Assembly (NCBI RefSeq): GCF_965641715.1
Contig: NZ_OZ282453.1
From: Escherichia coli
Lineage (GTDB): Bacteria; Pseudomonadota; Gammaproteobacteria; Enterobacterales; Enterobacteriaceae
Reading direction: 5' to 3' (one strand)
DNA length: 64,000 nucleotides
The translations under genes were made by a program, and so were the position numbers. The notes under the pieces are model-generated. The model was not told the origin of the DNA. It made no database searches and worked only from the letters and a program-made list of their open reading frames with translations. Below, piece after piece: positions 5,658 through 44,496 of this stretch (its first letter is position 1; each line of letters opens with the position of its first letter).

Positions 5658-6023
5658 TTAATTTAATCGTATTGCGCTGGCATTTTCATCAGCCCCTTTT
5701 TGCCATACTTCATGCAGTTGGCTGGCATTTTCAACATTGTTGCAGCTGGCAGGAAAGCTTTTACCGGAAAGTCCTCGGGCATAAGTAAAATCGGTCTGGC
5801 AAGTTTTCTTTTGTCCTTCGGCATATCCTTTAAGGTATAGACCGCGATCCGCCTGTGAATCGCTAAATGCATCGTCATCTTTTATGGCGCTGCCCGATAT
5901 CGCATCTTCCATACCAACATCATACCAGTCGGTGCTGGTCAAGGTTGGCGCGTGAGTATAAGGATCAATCTGGCATCCGCTAACCAGTAAAGCCAACAAG
6001 GGGGCGATAAACTTTTTCATCAT
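5658..6023 (-). CDS. yfiL: Lipoprotein YfiL
   Basis: Lipobox LLVSGCQ after a signal peptide; likely start at MMKKF (6023), whereas the track ORF extends to 6062 from a TTG. Confidence 0.75.
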   Translation of the reverse strand: MMKKFIAPLLALLVSGCQIDPYTHAPTLTSTDWYDVGMEDAISGSAIKDDDAFSDSQADRGLYLKGYAEGQKKTCQTDFTYARGLSGKSFPASCNNVENASQLHEVWQKGADENASAIRLN

Positions 6024-15046: not shown

Positions 15047-17869
15047 ATGACGGCAGAGTACATCAGGGACTGGCAACAACCGCGCCACGCAGTGGGACGT
15101 GAAGGAACGGGGATCCCCGTTCCTGAATCCGCGCTTTCCTCCTGGCTGGATGCCTACCGGGCAGAGAACGAGCGCCGCCAGGAAATGGCTGATGCGGCGT
15201 TCTCCGCCACGCCGCTGGGCAACCTGATTAATAAAAGCCTGGATGCACAGGAAAAACAGGACAAAACCATCACACTGGCAGGAGACGCCAGAAAACAGGT
15301 ACGCGGTGCGGTGGATGAAGCCATGGCCTCGCTGCGCCTGCTGCCGTCCTATCTGCGCGATCCGCTTATTCGCCACCTCTCCTTCCTGCGCAAAAAACAG
15401 GAAGCCGATCGCCGGAAAGGCAAAAAGAGCTGGCAGGCTGAACGCTACGCGCGCGGAACCCTGCGCAAAATATTCGAACGTCTGGACCGCACCGACCACC
15501 GCTGGCTGACACCGGGTTATCGCTCCCTTGCCGGACGCGAACGCCTGGATGATTTGCTTTACCTGCCGCAGCTCAACAAGCACCAGATACAGACGCTGGC
15601 CACCATGACGGCGGCGATGTTCAGCAGCACCTTCGAAAAACTCTGCGATGGCTTTGGCGCGACTGATGGCGAGCTGACCATGGATGTAACGCTGAAGGCG
15701 TATCAGATGCTGGCCCGCATGGCGTTACACCTGCACGCCATGCCTCCGCATTATGATGCACTGACAACAGACAAAGACCGGAGGAACGAACCGGACACGG
15801 AGCTGCTGCCGGGCGCAATCCTTCGCCTGACCTGTGCGGAATGGTGGAAACGCAAACTGTGGCTGTTACGTTGCGAGTGGCGGGAAGAACAACTCCGCGC
15901 CGCCTGTCTGGTTTCCAGAAAAACATCGCCCTATCTGAGCCAGGACGCGTTAAGCGAGTTTCGCGCACAGCGCGAGAAAACACGCGATTTCCTGAAAAGT
16001 TTCATGCTGGAAAACGAAGACGGGTTCACGATTGATCTCGAGACGGTGTATTACGCGGGAGTAAGTAACCCGGTTCATCGTAAGGCAGAAATGATGGCCA
16101 CCATGAAGGGGCTGGAACTTCTGGCCGAAGCCCGTGGCGACAAAGCGGTGTTTCTGACTGTCACCTGCCCGTCAAAATACCACGCCACAACAGAGAACGG
16201 TCATCCGAATCCCAAATGGAACGGGGCCACCATGCGCGACTCCAGCGATTACCTGGTTAACACGTTTTTTGCGGCGGTCCGCAAGAAACTGAACCGCGAC
16301 GGCCTGCGCTGGTATGGCATCCGCACGGTGGAGCCTCACCATGACGGCACCGTGCACTGGCATATGATGGTCTTTGCTCATCCGGAAGAAATCGACACCA
16401 TTGTGTCCCACACCCGCGATATTGCCATTCAGGAAGATCGTCACGAGCTGGGTGATGATATTACCCCACGCTTTAAGGCGGAGTACGTCGACGGCTCAAA
16501 AGGCACACCGACCAGCTACATCGCCACCTACATCGGGAAAAACCTGGACAGCCGTGCCGTGGATGGCATCGACCCGAAAACGGGCAAGCCACGCGTTGAC
16601 CACGAAACCGGAAAATCAATGGCCGAGAGCGTGGAACGCGCCATCGGCTGGGCGCGCCTTCATCGGGTCCGCCAGTTCCAGTTCTTTGGCATCCCCTCCC
16701 GTCAGGTGTGGCGTGAACTGCGCCGCCTTGCCAGCCAGATGGCTCGCAACCCGGAAGGACCGCAACGGCTGAAGGATGACGCAATGGACGCGGTTCTTGC
16801 TGCCGCTGATGCCGGATGTTTTGCCACCTACATAGAGAAACAGGGCGGCGTACTTGTTCCACGCAAGGACTACCTGATTCGCACCGCCTACGACCTCGCA
16901 GATGAGCTGAACGATTACGGTGAACAGAGCGTACAGATTTACGGGATCTGGTCACCGCTCATCGGGGAGTCTTCCCGCGTATGCACGCATCCGGACAACT
17001 GGAAGCTGGTAAGACGCAAACCGGAAGCGGAAGACAGCGCCCGCGAAAATGGTTTTGACCTTCAGGGCGGCCCTGCCGCCCCTTGGACTCGTGGCAATAA
17101 CTGTCCCCGTGTACAGGAAACAGGCAACAGCGGGACAGAACAGTCGAAAGAACGGCCAGCACCGTGGCCGCAGCTTCCTGACGGCGTTGACGTGAACGAA
17201 TGGATGCGCTCACTGAAACGGCACGAACGCCGGGCGCTGATGCGTTCGCTTCGTGACAAACAGGCAAAAAACAGCAGTGATGAAATGCAGAGCTGGACAC
17301 AGAGCCGCAAACAGCCACGGCCTTTGCCTGATAACCACGAATTACTCGCTAAAGAATGGCGGGAGTCTGCTGAATCTCTCGGCCTGCATATCGGTGAACA
17401 ACAGATGCAGCACCTGTTACGGGGCGGCAGTCTGTACGTTGACGGCAGCATCATTGCACCGCAGGGATTTGAAATTGTACGCAAACCGGATACCCGCCCG
17501 GACAGCCGAATCACGCAGCTCTGGCAGCGCCTGAGCCGTAATCATGGCGTAAGCAGCACGGAGATCCGCCATAACCCGGTCGCCAGCTATCTGGCACAGC
17601 TGGGGGCATCAGACCCTGAAGCCGCCGCACGCCTGGCATCCACACTTCAGCAGGACCAGAACACCATGAAAACACCCGTTACCGTGCTTTCTGACATGCT
17701 GCGCGCCATCCGCGACGCAGAGCACGCACAGAGAATCAGTGAAACCACTGAACGCGCCAGCCGCAAAGCAGACCTGCTGCGGGGTGGCCTGACCAGTGGA
17801 AACAAAAAACAGACAGAAACGGGATTCACAAATCCCATAAATGAGCAAAAAACGTGCCGCGATATATGA
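15047..17869 (+). CDS. Rolling-circle replication initiator (P2 gpA-like endonuclease)
   Basis: 940 aa with a HUH-type motif (VHWHMMVF); position after the early genes as in P2. Longer than P2 A as I recall it. Confidence 0.85.
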   Translation: MTAEYIRDWQQPRHAVGREGTGIPVPESALSSWLDAYRAENERRQEMADAAFSATPLGNLINKSLDAQEKQDKTITLAGDARKQVRGAVDEAMASLRLLPSYLRDPLIRHLSFLRKKQEADRRKGKKSWQAERYARGTLRKIFERLDRTDHRWLTPGYRSLAGRERLDDLLYLPQLNKHQIQTLATMTAAMFSSTFEKLCDGFGATDGELTMDVTLKAYQMLARMALHLHAMPPHYDALTTDKDRRNEPDTELLPGAILRLTCAEWWKRKLWLLRCEWREEQLRAACLVSRKTSPYLSQDALSEFRAQREKTRDFLKSFMLENEDGFTIDLETVYYAGVSNPVHRKAEMMATMKGLELLAEARGDKAVFLTVTCPSKYHATTENGHPNPKWNGATMRDSSDYLVNTFFAAVRKKLNRDGLRWYGIRTVEPHHDGTVHWHMMVFAHPEEIDTIVSHTRDIAIQEDRHELGDDITPRFKAEYVDGSKGTPTSYIATYIGKNLDSRAVDGIDPKTGKPRVDHETGKSMAESVERAIGWARLHRVRQFQFFGIPSRQVWRELRRLASQMARNPEGPQRLKDDAMDAVLAAADAGCFATYIEKQGGVLVPRKDYLIRTAYDLADELNDYGEQSVQIYGIWSPLIGESSRVCTHPDNWKLVRRKPEAEDSARENGFDLQGGPAAPWTRGNNCPRVQETGNSGTEQSKERPAPWPQLPDGVDVNEWMRSLKRHERRALMRSLRDKQAKNSSDEMQSWTQSRKQPRPLPDNHELLAKEWRESAESLGLHIGEQQMQHLLRGGSLYVDGSIIAPQGFEIVRKPDTRPDSRITQLWQRLSRNHGVSSTEIRHNPVASYLAQLGASDPEAAARLASTLQQDQNTMKTPVTVLSDMLRAIRDAEHAQRISETTERASRKADLLRGGLTSGNKKQTETGFTNPINEQKTCRDI

Positions 17870-17945
17870 AGCGCGCACAAAACAGGCAAAAGCGGGATTT
17901 AAAAATCCTGTAAACGATTAATTAATCAACATAAGGAAAAGCGAC

Positions 17946-18905
17946 ATGAAAATTTGTATCGACGACGGCTCCACCAACATCAAGCTGGCATGGACTGAGA
18001 ACGGCGAACGCCGCAACGCCATCAGCCCGAACAGCTTCAAGTCGGAATGGTCTGCGCCGTTCGGTGGCTCGCAGCCCGCGAACTACATGCTTGATGGCGT
18101 GCGCTATGGTTTTGATCCGGTCAGCGATCGCTTTGTCCAGACGACCGACACGCAATACCAGTACAGCGATGTGAATGTCATTGCCATTCATCACGCGCTG
18201 GTCAAATCAGGCATCACGCCACAGGAGGTGGATGTGGTTGTCACCCTGCCATTGAGCGAGTATTTCGACACAAACGCACAGCCGGACATGGCCAACATCA
18301 GCCGCAAAAAAGCGAACGTTATGCGCCCGGTGGAGTACCAGAACGGCGAAACATTCACTATCCGTAACGTACGGGTTATGCCTGAATCCATTCCGGCTGG
18401 CTTTAAAGCACTGGCTGACATGAGTCCGCTTGAATCCCTGCTGATTGTGGATTTGGGCGGAACCACACTGGATGTGGCAAAGGTTCAGGGGCAACTGGCA
18501 GGTATCAGCCAGGTGTTTTGCGATCCACACGTAGGCGTTTCCCTGATGGCCGATGCCGTACTGTCGGTGATGGCCACTAACGGTATGCGTATCAGTCACC
18601 ACATCGCCAATACCATTATCGAACATCGCCATGATGAAGCCTGGTTGCGCCAGCACATCCACAATGACGCGCATTACGCCAGCCTGATGGCGGTTATTCG
18701 TGAAAAGGAAGAAACACTGAAACAACGCGTGATCCGCGCGCTGGCGGTTTTTTCGGGTTACGGGCGGGTGATGGTTGTCGGTGGCGGGGCGGAGATTGTG
18801 GCACCCGCTATCCGCGAAGCCTGCGGAGTTAATGCGACTTTCATCGCGGACGGGGTGCCACAGTTTGCTCTGGTTAATGGGCTGTACGCAATGGACAAGG
18901 AGTAA
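17946..18905 (+). CDS. ParM/StbA-like actin-type segregation ATPase
   Basis: N-terminus MKICIDDGSTNIKLAW... and later ...YSDVNVIAIHHAL... closely resemble plasmid R1 ParM (MLVFIDDGSTNIKLQW...YSDVNVVAVHHAL) as recalled. Confidence 0.85.
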   Translation: MKICIDDGSTNIKLAWTENGERRNAISPNSFKSEWSAPFGGSQPANYMLDGVRYGFDPVSDRFVQTTDTQYQYSDVNVIAIHHALVKSGITPQEVDVVVTLPLSEYFDTNAQPDMANISRKKANVMRPVEYQNGETFTIRNVRVMPESIPAGFKALADMSPLESLLIVDLGGTTLDVAKVQGQLAGISQVFCDPHVGVSLMADAVLSVMATNGMRISHHIANTIIEHRHDEAWLRQHIHNDAHYASLMAVIREKEETLKQRVIRALAVFSGYGRVMVVGGGAEIVAPAIREACGVNATFIADGVPQFALVNGLYAMDKE

Positions 18906-18909
18906 ACCA

Positions 18910-19221
18910 ATGACGACTCCAACCAGACGGATAAGTTTCTATCTGAAGCCCGCCGCCGTCAAGAACGAAGGTGAAGCATGCGCCTGGCTGGACAGCCTTA
19001 CACCAGAAGCGCGCAAAAGCGGCCAACGCGTGGCTTTTCTGGCCGGGCTGGCACTTCTGAAAATGAATCCGGCAGAGGCTTACCGACTGGCTGCATGGGC
19101 TGATGATGAAGCGTTATCAGTGACACAAACCAGGACAGAACGCCCCGCGTCACAGCCAGTATCAACCGCACAGATAACCAGTCAGATGGCCGGAAATATC
19201 CGGGCGTTATTTCCCGAATAA
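18910..19221 (+). CDS. ParR/StbB-like centromere-binding adaptor
   Basis: 103 aa from ATG 18910 (AAGGAG RBS); RRISFYLKP...LDSLTPEARKSGQRVAFLAGLAL and C-terminal NIRALFPE parallel R1 ParR; 4 nt after the ParM stop. Confidence 0.7.
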   Translation: MTTPTRRISFYLKPAAVKNEGEACAWLDSLTPEARKSGQRVAFLAGLALLKMNPAEAYRLAAWADDEALSVTQTRTERPASQPVSTAQITSQMAGNIRALFPE

Positions 19222-19284
19222 CACAACATCAGGGCGCATCCGCCCTGATGACTTTAACCCGGGAACATAAACAAGGGGGACACA

Positions 19285-19620
19285 ATGCAACGCATTGACA
19301 GAGAAAAAGCGCAGCGACTGATTGAGCGGATGGAAGCGCTGGCGAAAGAAGAAAATGTCAACATCCAAAAAATAGCTGAATGTGGCCAGATAGTTCTTCG
19401 TCGTGAAAAAGACCTCAAACAACTGATGTCTGGCGAAACCAGCAAAACATGGACTTCAGGTGAGGAGACGATTTATTGCAGCTTCTGCAATAAATCCCAG
19501 TACGAAGTCACAAAGGTGATTGCCGGACCGTCTGTTTACATCTGCAATGAGTGCGTTGATTTGTGCAATGAAGTTATCAGGAGAGAAGTGACAGACCATG
19601 AAGAAAAAACGCATGAATGA
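19285..19620 (+). CDS. Protein with C-terminal ClpX-type C4 zinc-binding domain
   Basis: C-terminal [39 protein letters not shown] is near-identical to the ClpX N-domain as recalled; N-terminal ~65 aa unrelated and helical. Confidence 0.75.
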
Positions 19621-19786
19621 CGAATTTGACGGCTTTTAATTTTATCGGGGCGCACTGTCGCCCTGCATGGAGAAAAACAATAAAAAAGATGAATAACTGC
19701 TCATGTCAGACGCGCTGCGGGCAAGTCTGGCACCCTGCCCTGTCTCCGCAAAGGCTGTTGTCTTAACACGACAGAGTATGCCAGCA

Positions 19787-20194
19787 TTAAATATAATCTT
19801 CTTCGTAGTCGCTGATTAATTCATTGCCATAATCAGACAGCAATTTCAAAGCAAAGGTAACTTCCTCAAGGGTAGCTATCCCCATTGCTGAAAACACCGT
19901 TAATTTAACCAGCAGCAGGGAGTTTGAAAGTTCGGAAGAGTTCATCATTAAAAATATTGATGCAGCCTGAAAAGCTGTGCGTTTATTCCCATCATGAAAG
20001 GCATGAGCCTTGGCTATACCAATCAAATACATAGCAGCCAGAGCATGAATATCATCAACCCCTTCATAGTAGTGTAGTGTCCTGACGCGATTTAAAGCAC
20101 CTTCAAGTAGCCCGTCATTGGCATTTCCGCTCTGGGGTAAAGTTTCAGCATGGATACGTTCTACTTGTTCTTTTGACAAAAACACTATGTCCAT
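19787..20194 (-). CDS. Doc-family (Fic-fold) toxin
   Basis: 135 aa with Fic/Doc active-site motif HAFHDGNKRTAF; downstream of and overlapping the antitoxin gene. Confidence 0.8.
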   Translation of the reverse strand: MDIVFLSKEQVERIHAETLPQSGNANDGLLEGALNRVRTLHYYEGVDDIHALAAMYLIGIAKAHAFHDGNKRTAFQAASIFLMMNSSELSNSLLLVKLTVFSAMGIATLEEVTFALKLLSDYGNELISDYEEDYI

Positions 20195-20550
20195 CAGTTA
20201 TCCTCAAGCTTTTTAATGATATCCGCATGTTTTTCTCTTGTACGCTTCATTGCATCTTCAAAAGACAATCCTTTTTTTCTCTGTGCGACAAGAGCTGGAT
20301 GACGTTTTTCCAGATCTCTCACTGCATTTATTAAGAGTGGTTGCTTCATTTTGTTTATTTGATCCCGCAGTTTTTTGGTTTTGCCAAGGACAGCCCGTAT
20401 TTCAGGACTAAGATCAGAACCAGCAAGAACAACATCCTTCCCTCCCTGCGCCGTGATAACGACACTGCCACCGGAAGAAAGGTAATCCAGAATTTCACTC
20501 AGGTTCTCACGAAATTCATCATCAGTTACAGTTTTCATATTCATTTCCAT
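20194..20550 (-). CDS. Phd/YefM-like antitoxin with C-terminal extension
   Basis: N-terminus ...MKTVTDDEFRENLSEILDYL...VVITAQGGKDVVLA fits the Phd/YefM pattern; stop overlaps the Doc start. Confidence 0.65.
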   Translation of the reverse strand: MEMNMKTVTDDEFRENLSEILDYLSSGGSVVITAQGGKDVVLAGSDLSPEIRAVLGKTKKLRDQINKMKQPLLINAVRDLEKRHPALVAQRKKGLSFEDAMKRTREKHADIIKKLEDN

Positions 20551-20624
20551 TATGCACGCCCATAACGTAAGTATAACGGCTTGTTGGGCAGTAATAACAC
20601 CGCCATATTTTCATTTTATACACC

Positions 20625-20650
20625 GCACAATAGTGCACAAATTTGCACAA
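20625..20650 (-). promoter_or_regulatory. Putative operator of the phd-doc promoter
   Basis: Three GCACAA hexamers at 10-bp phasing (20625, 20635, 20645) overlapping -10/-35-like elements upstream of the antitoxin gene. Confidence 0.4.
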
Positions 20651-21074
20651 TTTTTTTGAACAACTTTTTACCCTTCCGGCCCGCGTGGCGACTGGATCCG
20701 TCAAGGATCCGTGCGTGCACAAAAAAACGCGTTTTTTCTGCGCGCAGGTGACGGGGGAACAGCCCGCGTTTCAGGGGGTAAATAGCATTCCCTGAACGAT
20801 GTCGCAGCGACACAACAGAATGGCTGTATTTCTCACACTGAGCGTGAAAAAGGCGTGAGGGCTTTTGATTTGATGGGGTGACAGATAAGGCCGTCAAAAT
20901 CGCACTGAGGCGGCAAGAACATGCAGTCAACGCGGTGGGATTGCGTAAGAGCCTGACCGTCGATGATGGCGATAAGCTGGAAGACGTCGTGAAATTATCT
21001 GATTGATACAGGAGCTGGAGAGTCGGGGCATAAATTTTTTATGCCCCGGCGAAGCAGCAGACAAGCGAAGCGCG

Positions 21075-22121
21075 TCAGGATGTGGGCTGGGTGTCCAGCA
21101 GTGCGTAAGGGTTAAAGCGGATCACCTCTTCGCCAAGCCAGTCATTGATATGCTTCATGGCCTCCATGACGGGCATCAGCTCGTTAATTGCGTAAACCCG
21201 CGCTGCCTTCTCCACATCACCAAACGCACTTTTTTCGCCCGGCATCGCCCCCATCAGTTGCGGCGGAACGCGGTGCGCAGCCAGCACATCATCACGGGAT
21301 GCCGCCTTAACATTCATGAACTCATCCTTTGCGGTGATCTGCTGGAACGGCAAAATTTGCACACCTTCTTTGCCCCCGTTGGGCGCGTGAATGAGCACGT
21401 TTTTAAATGCACCACCACCACGCGCACCCTGTAGCGTTTCCTTCAGGGAGTCCATGCTTTCGCGGTTTACCTGCGCTGCACCGATGTAGATGATGCACCC
21501 GGCGTGGGATCCATTGTCGTAGTACAGTTTTCTGAACATGTCCGCCGAATGAGACAGGCTGGCCGAGAGTAATGCGCCAAGATATTCCGGCATGCCGTAA
21601 ATTTCCTGGTTAATGTCCGGATTCATCAGGTGGCACACTTTGCCAGGGCGAAACTGAAACGCGTCCTTGCCATCCTGCACATACCACCATGATTCAAGAT
21701 CGCTTCCGCGTCGCATGTATTTCGCCAGTGCGTGCCGTAATTTAAGTGGTTCGCCGAGCATATTGCTCCGAAGCTCAAGGAATGCGTTACCGAACACAAA
21801 CCAGTCCAGCGCCAGCGCCGAGAAATCCTGCCGGGAAAGCAGCGGGTGCGGGATGTAGCAACCGAGCAATACATTGCGCTTAAAGTAAAGCGCAGACTGA
21901 TGCCAGGACGTTTGCCGGGCGGCTCTTGCCAGACCGTACCAGTCCACCGGGGTTTCATACCACCGCCCGTTATCAGCACAGTACATATTGTCCAGCAGGT
22001 CATGCCCGGTCAGGCGGTAAGGACCATCAAATGTGAATGCACTGAGCGACGATTCTTTCCTGAGCGCATCAGCGAGATCAATGCGTGAACTCATGCGCAC
22101 TTTTTTATTTTTTCTGCTCAT
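21075..22121 (-). CDS. Portal protein (P2 gpQ-like)
   Basis: 348 aa, co-oriented and overlapping with the large terminase gene as in the P2 Q-P operon. Confidence 0.85.
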   Translation of the reverse strand: MSRKNKKVRMSSRIDLADALRKESSLSAFTFDGPYRLTGHDLLDNMYCADNGRWYETPVDWYGLARAARQTSWHQSALYFKRNVLLGCYIPHPLLSRQDFSALALDWFVFGNAFLELRSNMLGEPLKLRHALAKYMRRGSDLESWWYVQDGKDAFQFRPGKVCHLMNPDINQEIYGMPEYLGALLSASLSHSADMFRKLYYDNGSHAGCIIYIGAAQVNRESMDSLKETLQGARGGGAFKNVLIHAPNGGKEGVQILPFQQITAKDEFMNVKAASRDDVLAAHRVPPQLMGAMPGEKSAFGDVEKAARVYAINELMPVMEAMKHINDWLGEEVIRFNPYALLDTQPTS

Positions 22122-42626: not shown

Positions 42627-43868
42627 ATGATTCGGCAACAATCATCACCCACCACGCGCGTAATCTCACCCCTGCGCCGTTCTCCCGCCACGGCGACAAC
42701 AAAAAGCAGTAACCCCCTCCGCACGCACATGCGACCATGCCGCACAGGGAGGGAGCAGATGACCGACACCACCATGCAATTGCTCAGTCAGGGCACAGAC
42801 CCCGTGAAAATGCCGGATTTTGATATTCTCGCGGAGGGTAAAACGCTGTCAGGCGTGGCAGAGCGCCTGATGAGCCTGTCAGTGACCGACAACCGGGGAT
42901 TTGAAGCGGACCAGCTCACCATCACGCTGGATGATGCGGATGGTCAGTTGCAGCTACCGCCACGGGGCGCGCGCCTGACGGTTCTCATTGGCTGGAAAGG
43001 AGAACCGCTGACAGAAAAAGGCACTTACATTGTTGATGAAATCGCTCACGAAGGACCGCCGGACAGGCTGACTGTTTCAGCCAGAAGCGCAGATTTTCGG
43101 GATGAATTTAACGTTAAACGTGAGGTGTCCTGGCATGATGTGACCGTTGAGCGTGTGGTATCCGCCATCGCTCATCGGTACGGTCTGAAACCGCAAATCA
43201 GCGAAATGCTGATGGATATCGAAATCGACCACGCCGACCAGACCGAAGAAAGCGACATGTCCTTTCTTACGCGCATGGCGGAAATGCTGGGCGCAATCAC
43301 CACGGTAAAAAGCGGTAATCTGTTATTCATTATGCCAGGCGGTGGCGTGAACGCACAGGGCCAGCCGTTGCCCTCGTTCGCCATCACGCGCAGCAGTGGC
43401 GATCGCCATCAGTTCCGCATTGCTGACCGCGAAGCGTATACGGGGGTACGCGCTTACTGGCTTGATCTTAATTACGGGAAAAAGAAAAAAGTCAGCGTGA
43501 AACGCCGCAAACCGCCAAAACCCAAAAAGGAGAAAAGCAGCAGCCGTGAAGGTGATTATATGGAAGGTGCGGAAGGCAATGTGTTTGTGTTACGCAAGAC
43601 TTATCAGAACGAGCAGGCAGCAAGACGCGCAGCGGCGGCAAAGTGGCAGCAACTACAACGCGGAGCCGCATCATTCTCCATCACGCTGACACGTGGACGA
43701 GCAGAACTCTACCCCGAAATGCATGGCACGGTAACAGGATTTAAAAGCGAGATTGATAATCAGGACTGGATTATTGCGAAAGCCGAGCACACCATTGATA
43801 ACAGTGGCTTTACCACGCAGCTTGAGCTTGAAGCAAAAATCCCGGAATGGATAGCAGAAACAGAGTGA
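42627..43868 (+). CDS. Tail/late control protein D
   Basis: gpD-family features; the true start is probably an internal Met near 42759; divergent from the FI gene. Confidence 0.8.
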   Translation: MIRQQSSPTTRVISPLRRSPATATTKSSNPLRTHMRPCRTGREQMTDTTMQLLSQGTDPVKMPDFDILAEGKTLSGVAERLMSLSVTDNRGFEADQLTITLDDADGQLQLPPRGARLTVLIGWKGEPLTEKGTYIVDEIAHEGPPDRLTVSARSADFRDEFNVKREVSWHDVTVERVVSAIAHRYGLKPQISEMLMDIEIDHADQTEESDMSFLTRMAEMLGAITTVKSGNLLFIMPGGGVNAQGQPLPSFAITRSSGDRHQFRIADREAYTGVRAYWLDLNYGKKKKVSVKRRKPPKPKKEKSSSREGDYMEGAEGNVFVLRKTYQNEQAARRAAAAKWQQLQRGAASFSITLTRGRAELYPEMHGTVTGFKSEIDNQDWIIAKAEHTIDNSGFTTQLELEAKIPEWIAETE

Positions 43869-44259: not shown

Positions 44260-44496
44260 ATGTGGAAAGGCCCCGGAAAACATTTCTGTTTAACCGAGGC
44301 CCTAACACTTCTTACCTTCGCAAGTAGAAGGTTAGCGCCTCTCCTCTCAGGAGACAAGCGTTATGACGCAAATTCCGTTAAAAACCCTGTTACTTTGCAT
44401 AACTGCGGTAGCGATAATCTGGATCCTCCACACATCACCGTGCGAGTTACGATTCAGGTTTGCTGGCACGGAAATTGCGGCATTCTTACTATGTAA
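44260..44496 (+). CDS. Putative mok-like overlapping frame of the hok locus
   Basis: 78-codon frame that starts upstream of, and overlaps almost all of, the hok-like ORF in another frame, as mok does in hok/sok loci. Confidence 0.35.
   Translation: MWKGPGKHFCLTEALTLLTFASRRLAPLLSGDKRYDANSVKNPVTLHNCGSDNLDPPHITVRVTIQVCWHGNCGILTM

Follow-up and report, generated by a model that had tools for sequence, protein, structure and literature searches.

The centromere of the plasmid R1 partition system, parC, consists of ten 11-bp direct iterons. In the CGP3 prophage of Corynebacterium glutamicum, the actin-like protein AlpC is co-transcribed with an adaptor, AlpA, which binds sites upstream of the operon and links circular phage DNA to the filaments; efficient replication of the phage DNA requires AlpAC (PMC4446434). 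In P2-like phages, the interval between the replication gene gpA and the portal gene gpQ is a hotspot of diversity and defense, and about one quarter of these phages carry a putative partition system (Rousset et al. 2022; PMC9122126). Here we report an analysis of that interval in a prophage within a 64,000-nucleotide stretch of Escherichia coli DNA (RefSeq assembly GCF_965641715.1, contig NZ_OZ282453.1), which as a whole is called the window. From gpA to the portal gene, the order is parM, parR, a gene for a 111-amino acid (aa) protein with a ClpX-type zinc-binding domain (the zinc-domain gene), and convergent doc and phd. An earlier note on this DNA had proposed that the first three genes are one undescribed system. 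With good confidence, we conclude instead that the interval is probably the gpA-gpQ variable region of a P88-like (Xuanwuvirus) prophage with three separable modules: a type II partition cassette, an orphan ClpX N-domain protein, and a Phd/Doc toxin-antitoxin pair.

The open reading frame (ORF) listing and profile searches confirmed parM, parR, the ClpX-domain gene, doc, and phd where the earlier note had put them, and matches to Pfam, PDB, phrog, and TIGR entries agreed with the identities it had assigned, the match for Phd being weak. Its spacings of 4 nt and about 60 nt were measured as 4 nt between parM and parR and 63 nt between parR and the zinc-domain gene. The locus between gpA and the portal gene, which it had taken for a variable locus of the P2 family, is the hotspot of Rousset et al. 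(2022; PMC9122126). The arrangement itself is already catalogued: the part of Table S5A of that study examined here lists exactly the set found in the window (WP_001561011, Phd; WP_000211256, ParR; WP_001561007, zinc-domain protein), as in E. coli RM10740. ParMR, the zinc-domain gene, and this Phd/Doc pair are listed by the study without functional assays.

The distribution of the genes was determined in 5426 complete E. coli genomes. The parM-parR DNA was found at 1453 places in 1306 genomes. The full zinc-domain gene was present in 111 genomes, about 8.5% of those with ParMR, and about 91% of ParMR prophages were without it. The published catalogue shows the same ratio, with 43 zf-C4_ClpX versus 489 StbA entries (about 9%) in the part of Table S5A examined (PMC9122126). 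In locus L003 (E. coli O157:H7 Z885), the zinc-domain gene has been deleted after codon 9, and both parMR and the downstream gene are intact. Many prophages without the zinc-domain gene still have its ribosome-binding site together with the first ~25 nt of the gene, joined to other DNA (for example, at ~8340-8365 of L003; 40-nt matches). These retained 5' stubs are scars of deletion or replacement and show that cargo is exchanged at a point just inside the gene.

At least five other P2-like lineages without ParM/ParR carry, between gpA and the portal gene, homologs of the zinc-domain protein that are 35-53% identical over the whole protein; the ParMR-less carriers were L052 (E. coli), L054-L057 (Salmonella), L076/77, and L079/80. 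Homologs also adjoin ead/Ea22-type genes in P1-like and SSU5-like plasmid prophages. The zinc-domain gene has the same neighbors (DUF7446, an Ead/Ea22-like gene, and a hypothetical gene of ~174 aa) in L007 (4336-5652), an SSU5-like plasmid prophage, and in the ParMR-less P2-like L052 (6001-7543). These shared neighbors suggest a moron block that has been exchanged between unrelated temperate phages.

A distant P2-like element, L041 (IMGVR_UViG_2757320580_000004), whose gpA is 35% identical to that of the window, has lost parM but retains a parR pseudogene at 5730-5927. The pseudogene comprises the C-terminal two thirds of parR, has an internal stop, and ends in ...FFPE; it has a divergent phd-doc pair on one side and an intact zinc-domain gene (35% identical) on the other. 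This remnant indicates that the adjacency of parR and the zinc-domain gene is old, yet that the zinc-domain gene outlives ParMR.

Across P2-like prophages, the three genes are thus distributed independently. This independence and the prior listing of the arrangement contradict the earlier note's proposal of a single undescribed system, and we conclude that the trio is not one new system but a set of modules of known kinds lying side by side in a published hotspot. Two further proposals of that note were sustained in part. Its suggestion of one operon is plausible as far as co-transcription is concerned, since there is no consensus promoter or T-tailed terminator on the + strand between the genes, but a hairpin intervenes directly after parR; as a + strand terminator this hairpin does not convince, since it lacks a T tail on that strand. 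As for its four unrelated cargo units, the zinc-domain gene and Phd/Doc are indeed separable, but ParMR is nearer the lineage backbone. The G+C content falls from ~0.55 to ~0.40-0.46 across 19250-20750, which fits separate acquisition of the zinc-domain gene and Phd/Doc, and not of parMR.

The coordinates of the features are collected in Table 1.

Table 1. Features of the gpA-portal interval and its borders, in window coordinates
Feature	Position	Strand	Evidence	Remarks
gpA replication endonuclease	15047-17869	+	phrog_91 'nicking at origin of replication' 3.7e-275; PGAP 'replication endonuclease'	Left border of variable region
Repeat 1 of candidate parC	17803-17844	+	Palindrome CGGGATTcacaAATCCCa at 17820-17837	Overlapped by last ~23 gpA codons
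Repeat 2 of candidate parC, probable promoter/operator	17876-17917	+	Palindrome CGGGATTtaaaAATCCtg at 17893-17910	
parM, actin-like partition ATPase, 319 aa	17946-18905	+	Pfam StbA_N 5.6e-82 and ParM C-terminal domain 5.4e-68; phrog_691 partition protein	
parR, adaptor/centromere-binding protein, 103 aa	18910-19221	+	Pfam Plasmid_stab_B 2.1e-24; phrog_2515 1.1e-58	
GC-rich hairpin, 10-bp stem	19227-19250			Directly after parR; approximate right edge of par cassette
Orphan ClpX-N-domain protein, 111 aa	19285-19620	+	Pfam zf-C4_ClpX 3.1e-17; phrog_6797 (function unassigned) 1.6e-57	
doc toxin, Fic fold, 135 aa	19787-20194	-	TIGR01550 53.6 bits vs cutoff 38.65; phrog_577 Doc-like toxin	
phd-like antitoxin, 118 aa (longest ORF) or 114 aa (PGAP start)	20194-20550	-	PGAP 'Phd/YefM family antitoxin'	Overlaps doc by 1 nt
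Perfect 16-bp palindrome GTGCACAAATTTGCAC	20633-20648			~85-100 bp upstream of phd
Portal protein gpQ	21075-22121	-	ORF listing and PGAP	Right border of variable region

The window ParM matched the structure of R1 ParM (1mwk) over its full length with ~50% identity (E=7.5e-94), and its nucleotide-binding motifs, IDDGSTNIK, DLGGTTLD, and GGGAE, align with those of R1 ParM. For ParR, a sequence search against solved structures gave no match, and a tblastn search of the PLSDB plasmids gave seven records, all with the same phage-type cassette, and no plasmid ParR. Across 18 related loci, the ratio of nonsynonymous to synonymous substitution rates (dN/dS) was ~0.16 for ParM and ~0.31 for ParR; these values point to purifying selection on ParM.

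Upstream of parM is a 42-nt direct repeat with two copies that are 79% identical, the second of which sits in the 76-bp gpA-parM gap just 5' of the parM ribosome-binding site. An 18-bp palindrome of the pattern CGGGATTnnnnAATCCCG occurs twice in the 64 kb, versus 0.19 occurrences expected, and the two palindrome centers are 73 bp apart. Because a scan for consensus promoters gave none for parM, and none for the zinc-domain gene, the probable promoter in repeat 2 was placed by inspection alone. The limits of the cassette could be read from its relatives. L015 has an unrelated gpA (31% identity), and its nucleotide similarity to the window begins exactly at repeat 1, which marks the left edge of the par cassette there; in L005 the similarity extends as far as the parR stop codon. 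The repeats move together with parMR when a different gpA is substituted. With other Xuanwuvirus phages, the end of similarity falls between 19214 and 19276. The onset in L015 and the end in L005 delimit a mobile unit of ~17801-19224 that comprises the repeats, parM, and parR.

ParR alleles are 53-100% identical; MTTPTRRISFYLKPA at the N terminus and ...LFPE at the C terminus occur in every one, and the palindromes are conserved too. The N-terminal segment MTTPTRRISFYLKPA would correspond to the DNA-reading strand expected of ribbon-helix-helix proteins. In more than 500 E. coli prophages, the match to the window breaks off at parR codon ~18 (window ~18964), and the parR allele there is ~53% identical. 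The two alleles have the N-terminal 15-18 residues in common, as well as the C-terminal ...LFPE (3' end, ~19200-19221). Shared ends with a diverged middle indicate two major classes of ParR allele with a recombination breakpoint inside the gene. Taken as a whole, the cassette appears to be a functional-looking ParMRC with a centromere architecture other than that of R1, in which the repeats are a candidate parC and the palindromes putative ParR sites. The candidate centromere and the cassette boundaries are new details of this analysis.

The ParMR cassette was always directly after gpA. The matching gpA type was found at 1536 places in 1372 of the E. coli genomes; comparison with the 1453 ParMR places shows that ~95% of the prophages with the window gpA type carry ParMR. 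ParMR is therefore closer to the lineage backbone, or near-core, than to free cargo. All but two of the ParMR copies (1451/1453) were chromosomal. About a quarter of E. coli genomes thus carry an intact, selectively maintained R1-type partition machine within an integrating prophage. There were up to three copies per genome, which prompts the question whether copies in the same cell are incompatible in partition. RM10740 has a second place that matches the region, presumably a second P88-like prophage.

The zinc-domain protein is ~80% identical over residues ~60-104 to the zinc-binding N-domain of E. coli ClpX (PDB 1ovx, E=2.3e-19). An AlphaFold2 model with a mean predicted local distance difference test score of 79 consists of a hairpin of two helices (residues 6-23 and 27-48) followed by a disordered linker and then a C4 zinc domain (~63-100). 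In a Foldseek search of the PDB, the zinc domain superposed on the ClpX zinc-binding domain (2ds5/2ds8) with a root-mean-square deviation of 0.7-0.8 A and template-modeling (TM) scores of 0.87-0.91; the ClpX domain was the sole match, and the hairpin had none. All four zinc cysteines are invariant across the family. A profile search with the hairpin alone against 1.84 billion representatives recovered 16 cluster representatives, all with this same architecture or fragments of it; no other architecture with the N-terminal hairpin was found among them. The NCBIfam clpX models reach only positions 3-53 of ~415 and score far below cutoff. With 111 aa and neither an AAA+ module nor ClpP-docking loops, the protein is not a ClpX. 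Blastn with the zinc-domain gene gave matches in 288 of the 5426 genomes, never to chromosomal clpX, and thus the protein similarity is maintained without DNA similarity.

The N-domain of ClpX is a zinc-bound dimer that directly binds SspB, lambda O, MuA, UmuD', FtsZ, and the antitoxin MqsA (PMC8808172). Given these ligands, a free copy of the domain would most simply act as a competitor or as a heterodimer partner of ClpX, and the zinc-domain protein is plausibly a ClpX N-domain decoy. More specifically, we propose tentatively, as a possibility to which we give somewhat less than even weight, that this small family (phrog_6797), which is confined to enterobacterial phages, is a phage-made decoy or plug-in that either titrates N-domain clients or adaptors (SspB, RssB-type adaptors, antitoxins, MuA, lambda O) or retargets ClpX by heterodimerizing with it. 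If so, it would be a ClpXP-directed counterpart of the phage Lon inhibitors. Such inhibitors include T4 PinA and T7 Gp4.5. Depending on when it is expressed, the protein might then be an anti-defense factor that works by blocking antitoxin degradation or, alternatively, an exclusion factor against ClpX-dependent phages such as Mu. The function of this family is the sole part of the locus with real residual novelty.

In the Doc protein, residues 64-72 read HAFHDGNKR, which fits the Fic motif HxFx(D/N)(A/G)NKR. The profile matches of the antitoxin are weak (phrog_375, 4e-5; TIGR01552, 16.6 bits, below the cutoff of 20.8). The palindrome GTGCACAAATTTGCAC, which precedes phd, may act as an operator for the toxin-antitoxin promoter. 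This Phd/Doc pair was present in 19 of the E. coli genomes, all copies being at least 99.8% identical. Two of the 19 (loci L058/L059) kept Phd/Doc when a deletion took parM-3' through the zinc-domain gene, and the family also occurs without the zinc-domain gene in L063, L064, and L066-L071. In a search of PADLOC-DB v2 with all five proteins, Doc had weak Fic-domain matches to the candidate systems PDC-S23, PDC-M59B, and PDC-S05, and there was none for ParM, ParR, the zinc-domain protein, or Phd.

The prophage in the window is a P88-like member of the P2 family and is integrated beside pdxB in the E. coli chromosome. The interval is 100% identical to the chromosome of RM10740, for which PGAP gives the same five annotations and in which the surrounding genes include int, C (repressor), cox, gpA, and a full P2-type morphogenesis set. 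The nearest isolated phage is P88 (Peduoviridae; Xuanwuvirus), which has the order gpA-ParM-ParR-zinc-domain gene followed by downstream genes unlike those of the window. The window gpA has a C-terminal extension of ~200 aa; that it represents a fused copy of the 143-aa ORF located after gpA in relatives without ParMR was ruled out, since the two have no similarity. An IS66-family element (tnpA, tnpB, and an ISCro1-family transposase) lies in the tail-fiber region at ~33321-35936 of the window (L001 35522-38137), and the prophage may therefore be tail-fiber defective. A small pseudogene fragment precedes a gpD-like 'VgrG/Pvc8 family' gene (window ~43039-43839; L075 5839-6639), and a Hok/Gef-family toxin gene is located at the far end of the prophage directly after ogr (window ~44333-44473; L075 7133-7273).

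The mechanisms that we propose for the three modules are drawn from homology. The palindromes would be the candidate parC and an autoregulated promoter. ParR dimers would attach to the palindromes of circular phage DNA and cap filaments of ParM that are driven by ATP; these filaments would then move episomal genome copies apart or set their position. Such copies could arise after injection, after excision, or during gpA-driven replication. Action on episomal copies is favored because 1451 of 1453 ParMR copies are chromosomal, the element integrates, and no terminator is predicted between gpA and parMR. AlpAC of CGP3 was shown to act in this way (PMC4446434), and the ParM of plasmid prophage D6 offers a further analogy. 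The zinc-domain protein would compete for, or heterodimerize with, the ClpX N-domain and so alter ClpXP handling of N-domain-dependent clients and adaptors (SspB, lambda O, MuA, antitoxins). Phd/Doc would serve as addiction or abortive-infection cargo.

Several observations weigh against this interpretation. P2-type replication is gpA-dependent and rolling-circle, and gpA belongs to a lytic early operon that is repressed; it is therefore not obvious that the phage could be maintained stably as a plasmid. R1 parC is built of ten 11-bp direct iterons, whereas the candidate parC has two palindromes. The L041 adjacency shows some historical linkage of the par cassette with the zinc-domain gene. 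In ClpX, L12 and H23 are important for MqsA binding (PMC8808172); the equivalent residues in the window protein are T and Y, so its client specificity may differ from that of ClpX, and the H23 position stays H in several relatives. The ratio of nonsynonymous to synonymous polymorphism (pN/pS) of the zinc-domain gene among close relatives was ~0.45, a value from few substitutions, too few to inform. Finally, no functional study of the window genes was found in the literature on P2-like ParM, zinc-domain genes, and phage-encoded ClpX inhibitors.

Of the other explanations that we weighed, the one that fares best is that ParMR lets P2-like phages persist as true low-copy plasmid prophages, as suggested by Rousset et al. 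(2022; PMC9122126). The window ParM is of the same type as the partition ATPase of plasmid prophage D6, and one complete P88-like genome is on record as a circular 34.5-kb plasmid, pZ1323PEC0009-2. This record (L074; NZ_CP148288.1) is a 34,461-bp 'plasmid' from an E. coli isolated from a cat; it is circularized at the integrase end and holds the integrase, repressor, gpA, ParMR, and structural genes. The record represents an episomal form or else replicating DNA that had been excised and was captured by the assembly. The chromosomal location of nearly all ParMR copies, the retained integrase, the integrated state of the window element, and the lack of any evident plasmid-type replication control alongside the lytic rolling-circle gpA make this explanation unlikely, and action of ParMR on transient episomal copies is the reading that we prefer.

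A second alternative ties the zinc-domain protein to Phd/Doc: the protein would occupy or mimic the ClpX N-domain, thereby tune the turnover of Phd by ClpXP, and so set the threshold at which Doc is triggered, and the three would make up a three-component toxin-antitoxin module. We keep this link as a low-probability rival because P1 Phd is a ClpXP substrate (Lehnherr and Yarmolinsky 1995, as cited in PMC4803016) and because the same Phd/Doc family (Doc 58% identical) neighbors the zinc-domain gene in two very different P2-like phages, being convergent with it in the window and divergent in L041. The antitoxin MqsA, moreover, reaches ClpXP via the N-domain (PMC8808172), and the zinc-domain gene adjoins Phd/Doc in 17 of the 19 E. 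coli genomes that carry the pair. The near identity of those E. coli copies means, however, that they represent effectively one acquisition, so that only two independent co-occurrences remain, both in a hotspot where cargo collects. Phd/Doc is missing from the vicinity of most zinc-domain genes (about 111 genomes versus 17), and the Phd/Doc family occurs without the zinc-domain gene in the loci listed above. We consider a functional link quite improbable. An obligate one was rejected as a rule, since each occurs without the other.

The weakest alternative, that the trio is one undescribed defense or maintenance system that links an actin-like motor with its adaptor to a ClpX-interaction module, has in its favor the co-orientation and tight spacing of the genes with no predicted + strand terminator or promoter between them, their conservation in P88 and about 111 E. 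coli genomes, and the old adjacency recorded by the L041 remnant directly 5' of the zinc-domain gene, but it is hardly credible given the ParMR prophages and the L003 deletion that dispense with the zinc-domain gene, the matching ratio in the catalogue, the zinc-domain homologs without ParMR in P2-like lineages and plasmid prophages, the 20 kb between the ParM and zinc-domain genes of phage D6, the intact zinc-domain gene beside a lost parM and dead parR in L041, and the lack of a PADLOC match for any of the three.

For the preferred interpretation of three separable modules, the cassette boundaries and candidate centromere should ease study of the role of ParMR, and the family alignment and model frame the question of the zinc-domain protein. 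Among described systems, R1/NR1 ParMRC (StbA/StbB) is like the window cassette in having a ParM that is ~50% identical over its full length with aligned motifs, a small ParR/StbB-family gene (Plasmid_stab_B) 4 nt downstream, and repeated candidate binding sites with a probable promoter directly 5' of parM. The window cassette differs in that it lies after the replication gene of an integrating P2-family phage and not on a plasmid, its ParR is too diverged for a tblastn match to plasmid ParRs, and its candidate centromere is formed by two 18-bp palindromes 73 bp apart. AlpAC of CGP3 likewise pairs an actin-like ATPase with an adaptor in an integrated prophage, but it belongs to another actin-like subfamily and another host phylum, and the window cassette is known from sequence. 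The P1-like plasmid prophage D6 has both a ParM/StbA that is 47.5% identical and a zinc-domain family member that is 49% identical; unlike the window prophage, D6 is an obligate plasmid prophage, and these two genes are ~20 kb apart.

The zinc-domain protein resembles the N-domain of E. coli ClpX (1ovx, 2ds5-2ds8), with ~80% identity over the C4 domain and all four cysteines; it is without the AAA+ unfoldase module of ClpX and adds the family-specific N-terminal hairpin. The window Phd/Doc pair shares with that of P1 the Doc-type Fic motif HxFxDGNKR and an antitoxin gene that is upstream of, and overlaps, the toxin gene. The window antitoxin, at 114-118 aa with weak Phd/YefM profile matches, is longer than P1 Phd, which has ~73 aa. 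With the gpA-gpQ (tin/old) hotspot catalogued earlier, the window has in common both the locus and the arrangement, and there is no structural difference from the part of that catalogue with which it was compared (PMC9122126).

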